DNA of 32,000 nucleotides from the NCBI GenBank assembly GCA_049942765.1, contig CP188086.1, positions 570,001-602,000 on the forward strand, written 5' to 3'. The DNA is from Candidatus Saccharimonadota bacterium (GTDB lineage Bacteria > Pseudomonadota > Gammaproteobacteria > Enterobacterales > Enterobacteriaceae). The notes below the pieces were generated by a model. It saw only the letters and a list, made by a program, of their open reading frames with translations. It was not told the DNA's origin and ran no database searches. A program made the position numbers and the translations under genes. Positions 5,373-31,642 of this stretch are shown one piece after another; within the stretch, counting starts at the first letter, position 1; each line of letters begins with the position of its first letter.

Positions 5373-6755
5373 TTATTTACTAATATTCAATCTAATTTTT
5401 TCATTGTAAATAGTTTTTTTAACTTGATCAAATGATACACCTCCTGTAGAATTACGTGCTTTAATACATGATTCTAAACTCAAAAAGGGGTACACATCAT
5501 CTTCAATATAAATACAATATTTTTTATAAATTTCTAAATCTAATTCAGTTAAGCTTATATTTTTTTGCATCGCTTCTAGTACAATTTGTCCTACTATATA
5601 ATGAGCTTCTCTAAATGGAATTCCTTTTTTAACTAAATAATCCGCTAACTCTGTAGAATTACTGTAACCTAATTTTGCTGCAGAAAAACATACAGAAGAT
5701 TTTATTGTTATAGTCTCTAATATTAATTTAGACATCTTTAAACAATTGTTCCAAATATCTAATGCTTTAAACAAAGCTTCTTTATCTTCTTGCATATCTT
5801 TATTATATGACAATGGTAAACTTTTTAGTAACGTTAACACTTGAATTAAAGAACCATACACACATGAACAACGACCACGAATCAATTCTAACGCATCTGG
5901 ATTTTTTTTTTGAGGCATTAAAGATGAACCTGATGTGACTAAATCAGATAAATCAATAAAATTAGCTTCCCCTGAGTTAAAAAAAATTAAATCTTCAGAA
6001 AAACGAGATAAATGTAACATGCTAATTGAAGCAATAGATAATAATTCTACAACATAATCTCTATCACTAACACTATCTAAACAATTTTTACTTGTAGAAG
6101 AAAAATGTAATTCTTGAGACAATTTTTCACGATTTATACCCCAAGTAGTTCCTGCTAAAGCTCCAGAACCTAATGGATTCACATCCATGCGATCATAACA
6201 ATTATTTAATCTACTTGTGTCTCTTTTAAACATTTCTAGATAAGCTAAACACCAATAAGCAAACGTAATTGGTTGTGCTCTTTGCAAATGTGTATATCCT
6301 GGTATGATAATGTCAATTGTTTTTTCTGCAGTTATAACTAAAATTTTTTTTAATTCAACTAAAGTAGTTAGTAATAATAATGTTTGAGATTTACACCATA
6401 GTTTTAAATCTGTTGTTACTTGATCATTACGGCTTCTACCAGTATGTAATTTTTTTCCCAAATTACCAATCTTATTTATTAATTGTTCTTCAACCCAACT
6501 ATGAATATCTTCTGCATCACTCCTTAAAATAAGATGTGGCTTATATTTTACTTCATTTAACACAGTTAATAATGCTTTTTCGATTGTTTCTTGTTCTTTT
6601 AATGTAATAATATTTTGATCTAGAATAGCTTTGGACCAAGCAATAGAACTACAAATATCTTGTTCTAATAACCGATAATCAGTTTTTAATGAATTATTAA
6701 ATTTTTTAAAAAAATCATTATTAGTTTTAGAAAAACGTCCACCCCACAGTGCCAT
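5373..6755 (-). CDS. argH: Argininosuccinate lyase ArgH
   Basis: The product aligns with E. coli ArgH from MALWGGRF onward ([40 protein letters not shown]). The ORF track starts 4 codons earlier at 6767 (MEYIM). I prefer the ATG at 6755 because it matches the E. coli N-terminus and the upstream atGGAGtatata supplies a Shine-Dalgarno sequence. Confidence 0.93.
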
Positions 6756-8873: not shown

Positions 8874-8881
8874 AATAAAAA

Positions 8882-9889
8882 TTAACCTATATATTGAAAT
8901 AAGTGATTCCGTTTTTTAATAAGTAAAACGAATATTATGACATTGAAATACTAGATAACAGTCCCTATTAATAAATTATCCTCTATAACTATAATAACTA
9001 AATATTGATGATATAATATAAAAACAATATCATGAAATAGCAATTTCATTACAAATTGTAGTTGAAGTAAACCATTTTTACATACGTATATATATGGTTT
9101 ATTTTAACAAATTTTTATAAAAAATTTGAATAACATCGTTATACTTCATACTATATTTTTTAAAAAGATAATAAAAAAAATACTATGTTTAAGAATACTT
9201 AAAGAAAAATTAATATTATAAGTAATTTTAAATATTCCACAATTTTAAAAGTATGTTTAATTCGATATATGTTATAAGAATATAAACTGATTAAAAAACT
9301 ATTATATATATTATTATTTTTAAATTACTCCACTGAAAACACTAATAGCATTTATAATTGATATATGATCCATAGATAAATAATTTTCAATAACTAATGG
9401 TTATAAAGCTAATTAAATGCAAATTCAATTCCATATTAGAATAGACAATGATGAAATATGTTATATTTTTATGAATATTTTATTTCAGTACACTATATAT
9501 TAATTTTTTATACAAATTGACATTAATAAAAAAAACTATAATATTTTATATAACGTTTTAATTACTCTCCTAAAAAAACAGATACATCCAAAACTATACA
9601 TCCGTAGCTAAAAAAACAACATACAATTATAATTAATACAATTATTTGTAGCAAAAAAAAAACACAATATTAAAAATAAAATTTTTATCATTAATCACTA
9701 AATGGTAAATAAAAATACAAATTCTTAATATCTTTTAATTTTCATCAAACATCTGAAATACGTTTCAAAATATCTAAAATAAATGATAAAAAATAATATT
9801 AGTGATTTAATCTAATGATATCAATTTAAATAATATATTTAATTTGTTCTAGAAAAATAGCTAGAATTTATGACTAAAGTATTTAACAT
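8882..9889 (-). pseudogene. argC: argC (N-acetyl-gamma-glutamyl-phosphate reductase) pseudogene, near full length with many in-frame stops
   Basis: Hand translation of the minus strand starts at ATG 9889 and reads MLNTLVINSSYFSRTN*, against E. coli MLNTLIVGASGYAGAEL. The stretch 8963-9046 reads KLLFHDIVFILYHQYLVIIVIEDNLLIG, against [28 protein letters not shown]. The stretch upstream of it reads NKPYIYVCKNGLLQL, against HKPLVRLYDKGVPAL. There are at least 4 stops in the first 26 codons, plus further stops at 9102-9104 and 8951-8953. Start and terminal stop (8882-8884) are 1008 nt apart and in the same frame; E. coli argC is 1005 nt. The relic ends 8 nt before the argB start. No ORF of 60 aa or more lies here. 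Confidence 0.85.
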
Positions 9890-10051
9890 AATTTATGTAT
9901 ACCTAATATCTATTATATTTTATATTAAAATAATAAAGTACAAACACCAATTTAATATATAAAAATATAATAAAGTTACACTAGATAAAATACATCATGT
10001 AGAATAATATAAATATAGATTATGCTAATCTACTATCAATAATTGCACAAC
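9890..10051. promoter_or_regulatory. Divergent argE/argC intergenic control region (the position of the argECBH bidirectional promoter in E. coli), now flanked by two dead genes
   Basis: This call rests on position only. It is the 162-bp spacer between the two relic start codons. I could not recognise an ARG box or a convincing promoter. Confidence 0.3.
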
Positions 10052-11191
10052 ATGAAACAATTAACTTTGTTACATAAATATATAAAACTTTAAATCAAAC
10101 TGTTTCCATCAATTCTAACAATAAAAATAATTATTTTAGCAATAAAAATAATTGATATAATAGTTAATTAACTAGATAAATTAAACTTTTCCAATCAATA
10201 TATAATATGTTCTAAATACGAAAAAATTTAATTTAATAACAAAGTTAAATTTAGGAATAGGAAATTGAATGTTAAATAGACAGTATGATACAATCAATAT
10301 TAATAATTCTTTATGGAATATAGATCTATTTTAACTAACTCTAAGTTAGAATAAATTTTATGGTTCAAGAACAGTAGATATAAAAAGTTTTATTATTTGA
10401 TACGTAAAATTTTAGATGATATTCAAAATCTTAAAATTAATACATTCTTATATATTGGTTACCTCAGACATAAAAAAACTACAACTGAATCAAAATATTT
10501 AAAAAATATGCAATTATTAAAAAAATTTCATAATTATTGGAAAAACTATATTTTTCATATCCATTATTGAACATCAAGATTATCTTAAAAAACCTATATC
10601 TATTAATAAAATTTCTGGATATTTCAGTAATACTAATTTAGGTATGAATATCATAGAAATAACAAATTATATATTAACTTCATTAATTAGTTTAAAAATC
10701 TTTATTTATAAGGATAATTTAACAACAAAAATTTTATATTTCTTATTCCACAACACCAAAACTTGAAAATATTCATGAAGGTAATTCTATCTATACAATT
10801 TATAAATTATGTACATTATAATTTATTATTCCTTAAATACCTAGAATATTTATTACTACCATTAAAAAACTAAAAAAACAATCTATATAACTCAATAACC
10901 AAAAATAATACGACCAATATTATCATTAATAATATATATCACCAGATTCCGAGTTATACGTTATTACTTAACATGTCTAACATAAAACATATCACAGAAT
11001 ACTTATTATAAAGAAAAGCAAAATATGTAAATTATTACTCCGAAAACTCTTGTTCACAAAAATAGCCCAGTAGTTATCATCGATTCAAGAGATCTATCAA
11101 TCAAACTCACCAAACTAGTAAATATTTACATATAAATTCAATTAAACCAACAAAAAAAATAATTAGTCAATTTATTCATTATTTTTATTAA
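10052..11191 (+). pseudogene. argE: argE (acetylornithine deacetylase, peptidase M20 family) pseudogene, near full length, about 20 in-frame stops by hand count
   Basis: Hand translation in a single frame from ATG 10052 gives several matches to E. coli ArgE. The start MKQLTLLHKYIKL*IKLFPSI matches [21 protein letters not shown]. The middle KILDDIQNLKINTFLYIG matches [21 protein letters not shown]. Next, IYHQIPSYTLLLN matches LHPPIPGYECPPN. Then EYLL*RKAKYVNYYSE matches EKLLGAKTEVVNYCTE. Positions 11093-11191 read SINQTHQTSKYLHINSIKPTKKIISQFIHYFY*, matching [34 protein letters not shown]. The span is 1140 nt; E. coli argE is 1152 nt. Confidence 0.88.
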
Positions 11192-11212
11192 TAAAAAATT
11201 AATTAGAGATGT

Positions 11213-11239
11213 ATCTGTATATGCATTAATAATACAGAT
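11213..11239. terminator. Small stem-loop (8-bp stem atctgtat/atacagat, 11-nt loop) between the convergent argE relic and metF
   Basis: The bases were paired by hand. The stem is weak and AT-rich with no clear U-tract. Confidence 0.25.
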
Positions 11240-11324
11240 CATTGATTATATATACTCTATTATTATTTATAATCATATGTTACTTTCATTTAAAAAAAAT
11301 TTATTTACATCCTGTATTTTTTAA

Positions 11325-21165: not shown

Positions 21166-21201
21166 ACAAGGAATCCAGTTAGAATGAACTGGATTCCTTG
21201 T
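21166..21201 (+). terminator. Strong 15-bp stem-loop in the rpoB-rpoC spacer, followed by tttcgtttc (terminator-like, attenuator-like or a processing structure)
   Basis: The bases were paired by hand. Positions 21166-21180 (acaaggaatccagtt) pair with 21187-21201 (aactggattccttgt), with the loop agaatg. The stem contains 6 G-C pairs, which is unusual for spacers in this window. Confidence 0.5.
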
Positions 21202-25474: not shown

Positions 25475-25495
25475 ATATTGAAATTAATTAAATAA

Positions 25496-25530
25496 ACGAG
25501 AAAGTTAATTCTTATTTTCTCGTCTATTTA
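25496..25530 (+). terminator. Putative rpoC terminator hairpin (acgagaaa/tttctcgt, 12-nt loop) followed by ctattta
   Basis: The bases were paired by hand. It begins 22 nt after the rpoC stop. The stem is 8 bp and the U-tract is modest. Confidence 0.45.
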
Positions 25531-25811
25531 AATATAGTTAAATATTATTCTTAAATTTATACATATGTATGTAATAATATACATAATTGGATTGATTAAT
25601 ACTTTATTAAATTTTAACGCACATTACAAATGTAGTTATATTACTCATTAATTATCATGAAATATATTATATATAATAATAAAATTAATAAAAATAAATT
25701 TATTATTTTGGTACAATTATTTAAAAATATATTTTGTTGCTATTAATATTATTATCAATAATATAGTAACTATACAACATACCTGTTATTAACAATAACG
25801 AATACAAACTA

Positions 25812-27410
25812 ATGAATAAAAAAAATTCTATACGACAAGCTTTAATTAGTGTATCAGACAAATCTGGACTTGTTTCATTAGCTCAATCATTAATCAAAAG
25901 AAATATAAATATATTTTCTACAGGTGGAACAGAAAAATTTTTAAAAAAAAATAATATCACTACTACCAGTATATCTGAATATACTCAGTTTCCTGAAATA
26001 ATGAATGGTAAAATTAAAACTATACATCCTAAAATTTACGGAAGTATTTTAGGTAATCCAAACGATGATAGAGATATTATGAATTTTTATAACATTGTTC
26101 CTATTGATCTTGTTATAGTTAATCTGTATCCATTTTCAAAAAAGATTGCTATTGATAATATTTATCATGAAAATATACTTAATTATATCGATATTGGTGG
26201 AGTTACATTAATTAGAGCTGCTGCTAAAAACCATCCTAACGTTATGGTGGTAGTTTGTCCATTAGATTATCCATTAATTACCAATTTATTAGATAATAAT
26301 AATAATACATTTAACATAGAAGACAAGTTCTACATGGCTTGTAAAGCGTTTAAATATACTTCTCAATATGACAAAACTATTTTTGATTACTTAATTCAAC
26401 ATAATATTAAAACATCCACAATTCAATTAAAAACACAACCTTTACCCAATTATATAAATATTAAATTGAAAAAAAAACAAGATTTACGTTATGGAGAAAA
26501 TCATCATCAAAAAGCAGCTTTGTATTTTAATACATTAGACAATCAACATCATATAACTAATTCTATTTCATCGGCTAAACAAATTCAAGGCAAATTACTA
26601 TCATATAATAACATATCTGATGCAGATATAGCATGGGAATGTGTTCAATCTTTTAAAAATCCTGCCTGTGTTATTGTTAAGCATGGAACTCCATGCGGAG
26701 TATCTGAAAGTACTTCTTTATTAAATGCATATTTATCTGCTTATCATTGCGATAGTATATCCGCATTTGGAGGGGTTATAGCGTTCAATCACATATTAAA
26801 TAGTATTACAATTCATGAAATATTAAAAACACAATTTGTAGAAGTAATTATAGCTGATTCTGTAACAGAATCAGGATTAGAAATTTTAAAACTTAAAAAA
26901 AATATTAGAGTAATATTATGTAATAAAAATAAAAATAAAAATTGTTATGATATAAAATCAATTCATGGAGGAGGATTCTTAGTCCAAGATAGTGATACAA
27001 TAGAAACTAATTATAATGCATGGAAAAATGTTAGTTTTAAAACACCTACTAATCGGGAATATTTAGATTTGATATTTGCTTGGAAAGTAGTGAAATTTGT
27101 TAAATCTAATGCTATAGTGTATGTACAAAATCAATCAACAATTAGTATTGGTAGTGGTCAAACAAGTCGAATTGATTCAACAAAAATAGCTACTTCAAAA
27201 ATAAATGACAAAAAACAATCTTTAAAAAACATTGTTATGGCTTCAGATGCTTTTTTACCCTTTAGAGATAATGTTGATGAAGCAATAAAAATAGGTGTAT
27301 CTTGCATTATTCAACCTGGTGGATCTATAAAAGATCAAGAAATTATTCAAGCTGCAAATGAACATAATATAATCATGATTTTTACTAATAAACGTCATTT
27401 TAAACATTAA
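25812..27410 (+). CDS. purH: Bifunctional AICAR transformylase / IMP cyclohydrolase PurH
   Basis: The 532-aa product is collinear with E. coli PurH: ALISVSDKSGL, STGGT, KTIHPKI, VNLYPF, IDIGGVTLIRAAAKNH, LSYNNISDAD, CVIVKHGTPCGV, SAFGGVIAFN, FVEVIIA, VKSNAIVY, IGSGQTSR, ASDAFLPFRD, IIQPGGSI, and a C-terminal RHFKH. No purD follows. Confidence 0.97.
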   Translation: MNKKNSIRQALISVSDKSGLVSLAQSLIKRNINIFSTGGTEKFLKKNNITTTSISEYTQFPEIMNGKIKTIHPKIYGSILGNPNDDRDIMNFYNIVPIDLVIVNLYPFSKKIAIDNIYHENILNYIDIGGVTLIRAAAKNHPNVMVVVCPLDYPLITNLLDNNNNTFNIEDKFYMACKAFKYTSQYDKTIFDYLIQHNIKTSTIQLKTQPLPNYINIKLKKKQDLRYGENHHQKAALYFNTLDNQHHITNSISSAKQIQGKLLSYNNISDADIAWECVQSFKNPACVIVKHGTPCGVSESTSLLNAYLSAYHCDSISAFGGVIAFNHILNSITIHEILKTQFVEVIIADSVTESGLEILKLKKNIRVILCNKNKNKNCYDIKSIHGGGFLVQDSDTIETNYNAWKNVSFKTPTNREYLDLIFAWKVVKFVKSNAIVYVQNQSTISIGSGQTSRIDSTKIATSKINDKKQSLKNIVMASDAFLPFRDNVDEAIKIGVSCIIQPGGSIKDQEIIQAANEHNIIMIFTNKRHFKH

Positions 27411-27503
27411 CTTTATTTACTTTAATAAAAAATAAAATTCATATTTTATATTTATATAAAATATTAATGATAGTAATATTTTTATGTTTATTATTACTAA
27501 AAT

Positions 27504-27646
27504 AGTAAATAATCTCAGATCTCAAATCAGTTAGTAGATAGTAATTTTGTATGTTAAAAGGATGCTACAAAATTGAATTTTGTAGCATCCTTTTAACATA
27601 CAAAATTACTATCTACTAACTGATTTGAGATCTGAGATTATTTACT
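27504..27646. repeat. Perfect 143-bp palindrome (71-bp arms around G27575) overlapping the 3' end of metE
   Basis: I paired every position from 27574/27576 out to 27504/27646 by hand and found no mismatch. The first mismatch is t27503 against g27647. The right arm contains the metE codons for (V)NNLRSQIS plus the TAG stop (27616-27646). Confidence 0.95.
27556..27594. terminator. Bidirectional intrinsic terminator core shared by purH (+) and metE (-): aaaa-GGATGCTACAAAATT-g-AATTTTGTAGCATCC-tttt
   Basis: A 15-bp stem is flanked by A4 on one side and T4 on the other. This gives a stem plus U-tract on both strands. It lies between two convergent genes. Confidence 0.7.
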
Positions 27647-29886
27647 GCAATCATCATATTATATAATGATCTCTTTGTTTCCAACCAATCTCTAGTTTTT
27701 AAACCACAATCTGGATTCACCCATAATCTATTAGATGGAATATATTTCAAAGCTTTTTTTAATGAATTTTCTATCCATTCACTAGGAGGAATATTAGGAG
27801 AATGAATATCATAAATACCAGGTCCTATTGAGTTAAGATATTTGAATTTTTTAAAACTTTTTAATAATTCCATATTTGATCTTGCTGTTTCAATAGTAAT
27901 TACATCAGCATCTAACAATAATATAGAACTCATAATATCATTAAACTCACAATAACACATATGAGTATGAATTTGAGTACAATCTTTTACTCCAGAAGAA
28001 GCTAATTTAAAAGCTGTTATAGCCCAATCTAAATATTTTTTCCATAAACTTTGACGTAATGGTAAACCTTCTCTTAATGCAGGTTCGTCAATTTGAATAA
28101 TTTTGATTCCAGAATTTTCCAAATCAGCAACTTCATCTCTTAAAGCAAAAGCTAATTGTTTAGCTATGATTTCTTTTGAAATATCTTCTCTTGAAAACGA
28201 CCATAGTAACATTGTTACAGGACCAGTTAGCATCCCCTTTACAAATTTATTAGTTAATGACTGTGCATATTTAGTCCATTTAATAGTCATAGGAGATAAC
28301 CTATAAATGTCTCCAACAATAATTGGTGGTTTAACACAACGTGAACCATAACTTTGAACCCATCCATATGAAGTAAATACAAATCCTTCTAATTGTTCTC
28401 CAAAATATTCTACCATATCGTTTCTTTCAGGCTCTCCATGAACTAAGACATCAATATTAAGGTTTTCCTGTTGATATATAGTATCTTTAATATATTCTGA
28501 AATTTGTTCATTATAGTCTGATAAATTAATTTTTTGTTGTTTAAAATCTGAACGTAACTTTCTTATTTTTATAGTTTGAGGAAAAGATCCAATAGTAGTA
28601 GTAGGTAAAATAGGTAATTTTAATGTATCTTGTTGTATTTGATATCGAATTGTATAACTATTATTTCTACATATATCCCTCTGAACAATATTATCAATTC
28701 TTTTTTGAACATCTTTATTATGAACTAATAAAGAATCTTTTCTTTTTAAGATGGAAGAACTCCATGTTGTAATATCATTAATATTATCATTATTTAATGC
28801 ATTAGTTAATAATTTTAATTCAGTACATTTTTGTATAGCAAAAGAAAACCAACTTTTAGTTACAGTATCTAATTTATTTTCTATATTAATATCAATAGGT
28901 GTATGTAATAATGAACAAGATGATCCAATCCACAAGTTATTTCGACAATTCATAACAGGTTGAATTAATTTAAATAATTTAACCAAATTAGCTTTCCAAA
29001 TATTCCTACCGTTAATTACACCTAAAGATAAAACTAAATTTTTAGATAATAATTGATTAATTTGTGTTAAATTACATTTTTCGGAAATTATATCAATATG
29101 TAAACCTTGAATTGGTAATTTTTGTATAATATCTAAGTTATGTTCAATATTTCCAAAATAAGTAGTTAACAATAAATTATTGATACCATATAAATAATTA
29201 TAAGCTGTAAAAAAAGCTTTTTTCCACGTATCTGAAAGTTCGAGTACTAATATAGGTTCATCTATTTGAATCCATTTTATATTTTTTTTTGCTAATGTGT
29301 GTAAAATTTTTTTATAGACTGGGAGAATATTGTTTAATAAATCTAATCTATTGAATGAATCATCTATTGATTTACCTAACCAAAGATATGTTATAGGTCC
29401 TATAATTACTGGTTTTATATTGCGATTAAAACACATCGATTCATCAATTTCTTCAAATAGTTGAGTCCAAGTAATGTTAAACGATTGATCTTTATTAAAT
29501 TCTGGTACTATATAATGATAATTAGTATTAAACCATTTAGTCATATCAGATGCATGAATTATTTTTTCTTTAAATATTGAACCTCTAGCTATATTAAATA
29601 ATATATCTAATTTTGATAAATTATCATAATTTTTATGACGTTCTGGAATATTACCTAGTAACATACTAGTATGTAATACGTGATCATACCAAGAAAAATC
29701 CCCTACGGATAAAAAATCTAAATTATTATCTATTTGTATTTTCCAATTTTTATGTCTAATATTGTAGCCAACAGATAACAATTCTTGTTGACTGATATTT
29801 TTTTGCCAATATTTTTCTTGAGCGTGTTTTAATTCTCGATGACATCCAATTCTAGGAAACCCTAAAATATGATTCAATATAGTCAT
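27616..29886 (-). CDS. metE: Cobalamin-independent methionine synthase MetE
   Basis: The 756-aa product is collinear with E. coli MetE (753 aa): MTILNHILGFPRIG, MTKWFNTNYHYIVPEF, TTTIGSFPQT, VLVHGEPERNDMVEYFGE, GWVQSYGSRCVKPPII, IQIDEPALREGLPLR, IHTHMCYCEFNDI, ITIE, GPGIYDIHSP, WVNPDCGLKTR. The Shine-Dalgarno sequence aaggacaatatATG is present. Confidence 0.98.
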   Translation of the reverse strand: MTILNHILGFPRIGCHRELKHAQEKYWQKNISQQELLSVGYNIRHKNWKIQIDNNLDFLSVGDFSWYDHVLHTSMLLGNIPERHKNYDNLSKLDILFNIARGSIFKEKIIHASDMTKWFNTNYHYIVPEFNKDQSFNITWTQLFEEIDESMCFNRNIKPVIIGPITYLWLGKSIDDSFNRLDLLNNILPVYKKILHTLAKKNIKWIQIDEPILVLELSDTWKKAFFTAYNYLYGINNLLLTTYFGNIEHNLDIIQKLPIQGLHIDIISEKCNLTQINQLLSKNLVLSLGVINGRNIWKANLVKLFKLIQPVMNCRNNLWIGSSCSLLHTPIDINIENKLDTVTKSWFSFAIQKCTELKLLTNALNNDNINDITTWSSSILKRKDSLLVHNKDVQKRIDNIVQRDICRNNSYTIRYQIQQDTLKLPILPTTTIGSFPQTIKIRKLRSDFKQQKINLSDYNEQISEYIKDTIYQQENLNIDVLVHGEPERNDMVEYFGEQLEGFVFTSYGWVQSYGSRCVKPPIIVGDIYRLSPMTIKWTKYAQSLTNKFVKGMLTGPVTMLLWSFSREDISKEIIAKQLAFALRDEVADLENSGIKIIQIDEPALREGLPLRQSLWKKYLDWAITAFKLASSGVKDCTQIHTHMCYCEFNDIMSSILLLDADVITIETARSNMELLKSFKKFKYLNSIGPGIYDIHSPNIPPSEWIENSLKKALKYIPSNRLWVNPDCGLKTRDWLETKRSLYNMMIAVNNLRSQIS

Positions 29887-30726
29887 ATATTGTCCTTATT
29901 ATCGATATAATATTATATATTTATTTTTGATATTAATAAAAACCAATAATTTTTAATACAATGTTTTATAGAAAAAATAAAACATTAATTAAATATAATT
30001 TAGTTGTTTACATAAACTATTTTATAATATAAAACATTGAAATACAAAATTTTATATTAAAAAAAACTATTAATATATATACAATATTAATAAGTAATAT
30101 TTAATTAATAAAAAATTAAACAAATTATATAATTAATCAAAATTATATATTTATTAAAATCAATAAAAATATTTAATCTTAATTATTTTAAATAATGTTA
30201 AAAACATTTTTCTTATTATTAAATTTACAAAATAAAATAAAATAATTTTTATTAACAATAAAAAAGAACTATTATTTAATAATAGAAAATATTTTTTATC
30301 ATAAAAATAAATTTCAATATTTATTTAATATAAAACATTTAATATTTATAATTATATATATAAAATAAAAAATCTTTTGATTGTAAAAAATTTTAATAAC
30401 ATCAAATTAAATATGTTTTTAATAAAAATAATTTGTACTGAAATATATTTTTTTAGTTTATGTTGGTTACATTAATAATAAAAAAATACTCTATTTAACT
30501 CTGAATTAATAATAACTATTTTTAATAAACATATATCAAAAAACAGATAATAAAATTATTATTTTATTAATAGTATTTATTATTAATAATAAATAATGAT
30601 ATAAATTTAACAAAATTAATAATTAACAAAAAAAATAATTTTACTGTATATCGTACAACTAATAACATGAGTAACTTACATTATAATTTATAATAACATC
30701 ACTAATTTTTATAAATAAAATATAAA

Positions 30727-31501
30727 TTAGACAAATATTTTAATTATTTTGTTAATATAATTTTTATTAATTACTTCTAATTGAGGTTAAATATATTTTG
30801 AAATTATAATTTACAGCATTCATAATACATCCTTTACTTGAGATAAATACATATCATAATCATTCATATTATCTCCAAATGTAATATAATTATCTAGAGT
30901 GCAACATATTTTAGATGAAATAAATTTCAATACTGTAACTTTAGATATATCATAGTGGACTACCATTGCACATCCTATAGCAAAAAAACATTGTATTTTT
31001 AAAACTATAGTTTTATGATTTCCATTTTTAATAATTGTAATTTATTAATGTTTGAGAATTTAAAAAATATTTTATATATATTATTAAAAATTATAATTTT
31101 AAAATTTAATAAGTTAATTTTAAAAAAATATTACATATGCTATTTTTTAAATTAATATTGTTATGAATATATTATTAATTACGAAATATATTTTCGTAGT
31201 AATGTCTAAATTATTCCTTCTTAAATTACATAAATTGATTATCAATATTATGATAAATATAACAATAAAAAAATAATCTTTGATTAGGATCATGTGTTCG
31301 AAATTCATTAGAAATTATTACATAAAGTTGCATGTTAAAATATTCCACAATAAAAATATATCAGCATAGTATCAAACTGTTATAAGAATAAAATATATAT
31401 TTTTTAAAAACATTCAACAAAATTGATTTTTTAAAATCAATAATTTTACATTGAGATGTAAATAATACCCTATCTAAATTACTTACTATAATTTTATACA
31501 T
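30727..31501 (-). pseudogene. yigL: Cof-type HAD phosphatase pseudogene (yigL-like) with stops, at least one frameshift and a mutated catalytic motif
   Basis: Hand translation of the minus strand gives four matches to E. coli YigL. From ATG 31501, MYKIIVSNLDRVLFTSQ matches MYQVVASDLDGTLLSPD, with the nucleophile Asp changed to Asn. Positions 31268-31324, YVIISNEFRTHDPNQRLFF, match YMITSNGARVHDLDGNLIF. Positions 30820-31041, ...ISKVTVLKFISSKICCTLDNYITFGDNMNDYDMYL..KDVL*, match VSKGHALEAVAKKLGYSLKDCIAFGDGMNDAEMLSMAGKGCI. The C-terminal PQLEVINKN matches PELEVIGTN, with the stop at 30727-30729. The N-terminal and C-terminal parts are in different frames (775 nt in total). In E. coli yigL lies near metR-metE. 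Confidence 0.75.
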
Positions 31502-31571
31502 ATATAATACTTAAAATAAGTCATTATATTAAATATGTTCCATTAAATAAAAAATTATTTTTTAATATTCC

Positions 31572-31616
31572 AGCATCAACAAAAAAACAATTAATATGAA
31601 AGATTTTGCTGATGCT
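31572..31616 (-). terminator. Stem-loop about 25 nt downstream of the rpoH stop (13-bp stem with one G-U on the minus-strand transcript, 19-nt loop)
   Basis: The bases were paired by hand: 31572-31584 with 31604-31616. The single non-Watson-Crick position is G-U on the minus strand only, which fits the rpoH orientation. No U-tract follows. Confidence 0.3.
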
Positions 31617-31642
31617 AAACCATTAATAAACAATCAGTAATA

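Follow-up and report, generated by a model that had tools for sequence, protein, structure and literature searches.

How does a long and perfect palindrome, one arm of which reaches into a coding sequence, come to sit in the chromosome of a reduced enterobacterial symbiont, and what keeps it perfect? Enterobacterial chromosomes are normally regarded as unable to keep natural perfect palindromes of 143-293 bp. We analyzed such a structure at the junction of purH and metE in Buchnera aphidicola of Eriosoma harunire (CP188086), an aphid symbiont, within a stretch of 32 kb (hereafter the window; all coordinates are counted from its first nucleotide unless a related locus is named). The two arms, 27504-27574 and 27576-27646, are 71 nt long each and 100% complementary with zero mismatches, forming a palindrome of 143 bp around a lone G at 27575. 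The first failed pair opposes T27503 to G27647, and a search for residual complementarity past the arm ends of the window palindrome found none. An earlier, sequence-only reading of this DNA had described the exact 71-nt symmetry, the central G and the first mismatch, and all of its coordinates were reproduced here; its inner core, 15 bp flanked by A4 and T4, and the two AGATCT sites (27517-27522 and 27628-27633) were likewise found as described. With a pairing probability of 0.311, derived from the base composition of the window, an unbroken run of 71 pairs has a chance expectation of about 10^-31 per window. The runner-up among the hairpins of the 32-kb window has only 15 pairs; this second-best hairpin, a perfect 15-bp stem with a 6-nt loop, lies in the rpoB-rpoC spacer (21166-21201).

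The palindrome occupies the space between two convergent genes and the end of one of them. metE, encoding the cobalamin-independent methionine synthase, runs on the minus strand from 27616 to 29886 (756 aa; Pfam Meth_synt_1 and Meth_synt_2; 100% match to XRX42594.1), and its product ends in AVNNLRSQIS, followed by the stop codon at 27616-27618. The final 31 nt of the gene fall inside the palindrome, so that the metE-side (right) arm consists of the metE 3'UTR (27576-27615) and of the stop, the last 9 codons and 1 nt more of metE (27616-27646). On the other side, purH (25812-27410, plus strand) is an ORF encoding the AICAR transformylase / IMP cyclohydrolase, with the Pfam domains MGS and AICARFT_IMPCHas, and its stop is 93 nt away from the purH-side (left) arm. 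This arm (27504-27574) matches the reverse complement of 27576-27646 without error. It is non-coding and repeats, in inverted orientation, the metE 3' end (9 codons and stop), the metE 3'UTR and half of the putative terminator core. Its GC content is 25.4%, versus 7.5% in the adjoining purH-side spacer (27411-27503), and a non-coding arm of such composition beside such a spacer is therefore not decaying like neutral DNA of this genome. The other measured spacers have 13-18% GC overall and go down to 6-12% in stretches of 200 nt.

We then compared the metE loci of ten other Buchnera, reached via MetE protein homologues and considered with metE on the plus strand; the Buchnera of Baizongia pistaciae (P0009) is absent from this set. 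A MetE search of genome contigs gave matches of about 60% identity in free-living Enterobacterales alone and none in Buchnera. All six Eriosoma- and Mindarus-type genomes examined (three of each, the window included) carry a palindrome of their own at the metE/purH junction. Of the two further Eriosoma-type genomes, OZ060395 (locus L083) has arms of 80 and 79 nt around a 19-nt loop, with one 1-nt indel, while OZ060402 (L084) has a palindrome of 183 bp, with no arm differences, whose outer end touches the purH stop. The Mindarus-type palindromes measure 258 bp in Mindarus japonicus (CP135030, L085) and 293 bp in M. keteleerifoliae (CP135024, L089), both with no arm differences, and 251 bp, with one mismatch, in OZ060398 (L090), a genome that shares the gene order of M. 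japonicus and 88% MetE identity with it. Taken over the six genomes, the arms are 71-146 nt long and take in 10-31 codons of metE, the stop counted (18-31 in the five relatives), and the spacer is 0-1 nt in five genomes and 19 nt in L083. Long palindromes of the kind tolerated only where SbcCD is missing are perfect or nearly so, measure at least about 100-250 bp and have a very short spacer, and the sizes found, 143 bp here and 183, 251, 258 and 293 bp in the relatives, are of this order. A detail of L084 concerns its purH end: the outermost 9 nt of the palindrome (6390-6398) are the last two purH codons and the stop (AAGCATTAA), which leaves no purH-arm spacer, and a chance similarity to the metE codons for KAL has probably helped this match.

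Four other Buchnera (L086, L088, L091 and L092) have short or degenerate hairpins at the junction. The Tetraneura-type genome OZ060366 (L088) has a 10-bp hairpin (ACAAGATGCT/AGCATCTTGT) and OZ060370 (L091) one of 11 bp, and LT667500 (L092) has lost purH. The 641.7-kb Buchnera CP029205.1 (L086) contains a 138-nt quasi-palindrome (6271-6408) that starts at the metE stop and is 81% self-complementary with indels; its score of 145 was reached by none of 500 shuffled sequences (64 +/- 12), and it could correspond to the perfect palindromes but be in decay or have escaped homogenisation. Across the roughly 120 kb of Buchnera DNA scanned, nothing comparable was detected at any other junction.

Which arm is the copy can be decided from the protein. 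The right-arm codons can be aligned with the C-terminal end of MetE from Escherichia, Yersinia, Pantoea and every Buchnera examined (AAQNLRRG versus AVNNLRSQIS), and no inverted copy of the metE 3' end, not even a decayed one, was found in the spacers of L086, L088 and L091, which lack the long palindrome. The purH-side arm is therefore derived and the metE side ancestral, in agreement with what had been proposed from the window itself.

The centre of the structure suggests where it started. The inner core (27556-27594) comprises A4 (27556-27559), a 15-nt stem (27560-27574), the central G, the complementary 15-nt stem (27576-27590) and T4 (27591-27594), the stem sequences being GGATGCTACAAAATT and AATTTTGTAGCATCC, with 5 G-C pairs in 15 bp. 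It sits between the end of purH at 27410 (plus strand) and the metE stop at 27616-27618 (minus strand), and is plausibly an ancestral bidirectional terminator hairpin. The stem motif GATGCT occurs in the core of the window, at the centre of the L083 and L084 palindromes and in the short hairpin of the Tetraneura-type L088, which suggests that the palindromes originated from an ordinary purH/metE intergenic hairpin. The core resembles bidirectional intrinsic terminators in its position between convergent stops, in its relatively GC-rich stem flanked by an A-run and a T-run, and in its homology to short hairpins found at the same place in other Buchnera; it differs from them in that the stem extends 55 bp past the core here, and up to 130 bp in Mindarus, into coding sequence. 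An intrinsic bidirectional terminator is expected to have a GC-containing stem of 5-20 bp, a loop of 3-8 nt and then at least 5 T on each strand; a simple terminator scan made no call between 27200 and 27900. The window core has a 15-bp stem that runs on outward and is missed because its T-run is only 4, and the same scan calls a terminator on both strands of the M. japonicus core. The bidirectional terminator of the earlier reading is made plausible by the GATGCT stem shared with the 10-bp hairpin of L088. The core probably still acts as a terminator or 3' stabiliser of both convergent transcripts. Each arm of the M. japonicus palindrome (L085, 6265-6293 and 6332-6360) also contains a 10/12 match to a sigma-70-like promoter (TTGACC, 17 nt, TACAAT); the two matches lie on opposite strands, are both directed away from the palindrome centre and could be due to chance.

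An indication of how the palindromes are maintained comes from comparing arms within and between genomes. Within the six genomes the arms differ at 0, 0, 0, 0, 1 and 1 positions, whereas between species the identity of orthologous arms is only 58-90%, metE differs at 27-51% of its four-fold degenerate sites, and MetE identity is 83-88% among Mindarus-type and 68-74% among Eriosoma-type genomes. Arms that diverge between species and yet remain identical or nearly so within each genome must be evolving in concert. This is best seen in the three Mindarus-type palindromes, which share a nearly identical outer start at the GLKTR codons, the arm of OZ060398 beginning 4 nt further in. Their arms are 13-22 substitutions apart, with additional indels of 6 nt and 13 nt in M. 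keteleerifoliae, and without exception these changes appear in both arms of the genome concerned; a 26-nt inner core is invariant in all three, and no alignment is possible for the DNA directly beyond the purH-side arm. The Eriosoma-type genomes have in common a motif after the stop, the A-run and the GATGCT core. Ongoing homogenisation, one of the options raised from the window alone, is the one that the comparison between genomes supports.

We favor, with moderate confidence, the joint reading that a conserved terminator hairpin has been extended into metE and is kept perfect by ongoing homogenisation at the DNA level, most likely through template switching during replication. In such a process, the short terminator hairpin would seed intramolecular template switching as the region is replicated, the nascent strand folding back and copying its own complementary arm. 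Early events would let the repeat grow outward, into metE on one side and the spacer on the other, and later ones would overwrite any new difference between the arms, amounting to a RecA-independent form of conversion. Purifying selection on MetE would then pick which variants of the coding arm survive, and the non-coding arm would follow. The long extension would most likely be a self-perpetuating by-product and not an adaptation. Template switching is the best candidate because Buchnera are reported to be devoid of RecA, which is absent from the sequenced genomes, and of most recombination genes (PMC1193525). Template switching is known preferentially to make imperfect inverted repeats perfect, and it can also lengthen them (PMC5941160, PMC8794818, PMC7202029, PMC13100816). 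The same pattern would also result from mismatch repair directed by the hairpin, or from fold-back resynthesis occurring time and again.

Inverted repeats maintained by template switching (the quasi-palindrome correction of the Ripley and Lovett models; Lavi et al. 2018, PMC5941160; Monttinen and Loytynoja 2022, PMC8794818) likewise stay perfect across orthologues while their sequence changes, do not need RecA, can grow outward and are often seeded at hairpins such as terminators. However, the documented bacterial cases have arms below 20 bp and spacers of up to 70 bp (Lavi et al. 2018, PMC5941160), whereas the Buchnera arms, at 71-146 nt, are five- to ten-fold longer, take in as many as 31 codons of an essential gene and have been kept through speciation. 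In size, the 143-293 bp of the Buchnera palindromes are closer to the 246-bp palindrome placed in lacZ of E. coli (Darmon et al. 2010, PMC3315005), and a lagging-strand hairpin is to be expected in each replication cycle in both cases. In E. coli such a hairpin does form in every cycle, is cut by SbcCD and is then mended by RecA-dependent repair (PMC3315005). That palindrome is engineered, while those of Buchnera are natural, evolutionarily stable and found in a lineage reported to lack RecA. Given the route by which E. coli deals with such structures, the occurrence of 143-293-bp palindromes in a RecA-less lineage leads us to predict that sbcCD is absent: the hairpin nuclease SbcCD is presumably missing in the palindrome-bearing Buchnera, and its absence would be what makes the palindrome tolerable. 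What the earlier reading had inferred about SbcCD is a reasonable expectation. Near-zero divergence of arms within a genome combined with substantial divergence between species is also the mark of arm conversion in the palindromes of the human Y chromosome and in plastid inverted repeats. These are kb to Mb long and dependent on the machinery of homologous recombination. The Buchnera palindromes measure only 0.14-0.29 kb and belong to a lineage reported without RecA, and a replication-based mechanism is therefore likelier than recombination of the Y-chromosome or plastid type.

Within the literature covered, a search on palindromes at the Buchnera metE/purH junction found no earlier description. 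Their interest lies in that they have apparently been inherited, free of error, through speciation in two Buchnera clades, with one arm in a gene for methionine provisioning. They could serve as a natural model, open to comparison between species, of how inverted repeats are homogenised independently of RecA, at a scale well beyond that described in bacteria. They also bear on the fate of hairpin-forming DNA as repair genes vanish during genome reduction, and on the question of whether a mechanism of mutation may tie the evolution of a protein C-terminus to that of non-coding DNA.

The alternative that fares best against DNA-level homogenisation, though we consider it rather unlikely, is that the long stem is selected as RNA. 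A 3' hairpin of 71-146 bp would then work as an insulating terminator, a 3' stabiliser or a target of RNase III, and selection would keep its pairing. Folding predicts, as did the earlier reading, that read-through RNA of either purH or metE forms a perfect 71-bp stem of -113.4 kcal/mol (z = -24.8) enclosing the metE stop codon, and it speaks for selection on such a hairpin that the structure has been kept through speciation, in two clades and at one locus among all the junctions scanned, with its inner core conserved. Given this persistence and the conserved core, the long stem could have a function under selection. However, selection on RNA would tolerate G-U pairs, bulges and mismatches, while there are only 0-1 imperfections in 71-146 pairs and no G-T or wobble position in any of the palindromes of 71, 91, 129 or 146 pairs. 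That wobble is missing from stems of as many as 146 pairs speaks for copying of DNA rather than for selection on RNA pairing. The two-fold variation in arm length and a boundary that moves between species do not fit well with selection on RNA either, and neither do the hairpins of 10-23 bp that suffice in four other Buchnera. Also, no Rfam family matched at or above its gathering score, the sub-threshold matches being to miRNA-precursor models only, as is expected of a generic hairpin, and we know of no terminator whose stem includes a stop codon and up to 31 codons. A post-transcriptional device can be imagined on the same basis, and we regard it as improbable: the read-through dsRNA, of 71-146 bp, would enclose the metE stop and the last 10-31 codons, and RNase III would truncate the metE mRNA ahead of its stop and trim that of purH. 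If this were true, productive expression of metE and purH would depend on the efficiency of termination at the core, the device could replace transcriptional control in lineages where MetR is mostly lost, and homogenisation of the DNA would be the means of keeping so long a stem perfect.

Another explanation dispenses with continuing homogenisation altogether: each genome would have undergone its own, very recent inverted duplication, by fold-back priming at the terminator hairpin, and the arms would be perfect merely for being young. We give it little credence, even if perfect arms are what it predicts and the outer boundaries are unequal (10.3 codons in the window, 18.3 in L083, 20.7 in L084 and 28-31 in the Mindarus group). 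It can also count on a decayed direct repeat just outside the window palindrome, which looks as if a fresh arm had been inserted beside an old one. This repeat (27469-27488, plus strand, 20 nt) is a copy of the inner part of the left arm, 27537-27555, with 18/19 matches and one gap, and lies 68 nt upstream of its counterpart; its score was reached by 4 of 2000 shuffles and by none of 318 real-spacer controls. It may be what remains of a former purH-side arm that a new fold-back copy has displaced outward. Decayed old arms were looked for outside the palindromes of L083, L085, L089 and L090 as well, and none was found. Since the boundary of the window palindrome lies about ten codons further in than that of L083 and L084, which is roughly the same in both, and since a decayed partial copy lies outside it, the window arm could be a fairly recent regeneration and not the product of steady conversion. 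As a general account, however, independent duplication needs at least six very recent events, hitting six of six genomes in two clades and none of four others. It must also contend with the approximately common boundary of L083 and L084, and with the Mindarus-type genomes, which share their boundary (within 4 nt), their centre and the 26-nt core although their arms differ by 10-28% from one genome to another. Moreover, regeneration at such frequency would itself be ongoing homogenisation. The one-off, very recent duplication that had been considered for the window is thus disfavored, both by the five relatives that carry the structure and by this shared Mindarus boundary.

Palindromic chimeras are a known artefact of long reads, and a fold-back chimera, or over-correction by Pilon, might have made the palindrome or the perfection of its arms. 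The Logan assembly of the Illumina run SRR33632139 alone contains two contigs identical to the flanks of the window palindrome, of which the purH contig (L002) stops at 27533 and the metE contig (L001) at 27617, that is, 30 nt into each arm. For Logan we take k to be 31; the contigs then end exactly k-1 = 30 nt inside the arms, as expected of a branch in a de Bruijn graph, and both flank-arm junctions are therefore present in the short reads. The deposited assembly has a Nanopore backbone (miniasm, Racon) polished with 75-bp Illumina reads of that same run (PMC12243488), a history that gives the suspicion of an artefact some ground and that makes the two lines of evidence for CP188086 not fully independent. 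An artefact is nevertheless very unlikely, because the Illumina-only assembly matches both flank-arm junctions base for base, because the same architecture is found at the same junction in five other genomes, and because 75-bp reads exceed one arm and are anchored in a flank or in the centre; the palindrome is genuine and heritable, and the artefact option of the sequence-only reading is rejected. A practical consequence is that the palindrome breaks short-read assemblies exactly at the metE/purH junction.

Two other identities were considered for this sequence. A mobile element of the MITE or IS kind was discarded, as neither the window nor any of the ten related loci contains a further copy and one arm is the 3' end of metE. 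A plasmid-borne sequence was discarded too, with no match in the plasmid collection.

The surroundings of the two genes offer some observations in their own right. Between metE and rpoH, 1.75 kb (29887-31642) are free of ORFs, with 13% GC overall and stretches of 6-12%. The same interval holds a Hydrolase_3 (yigL/cof-like) gene in relatives, and in some of them also metR, encoding a LysR-type regulator; both genes appear to be lost or reduced to pseudogenes in the window genome. On the other side, the rpoC-purH spacer (25475-25811) comprises 337 nt and is ORF-free. hupA (Bac_DNA_binding) adjoins purH in the Mindarus-type genomes and in CP029205 and is missing there in the Eriosoma-type genomes. 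Further away in the window, 2.45 kb between argB (AA_kinase) and metF (MTHFR), at 8874-11324, contain no ORF of at least 80 aa and have 18% GC; from the gene order of Buchnera we would expect argC and argE at this place, and they may be pseudogenes here.
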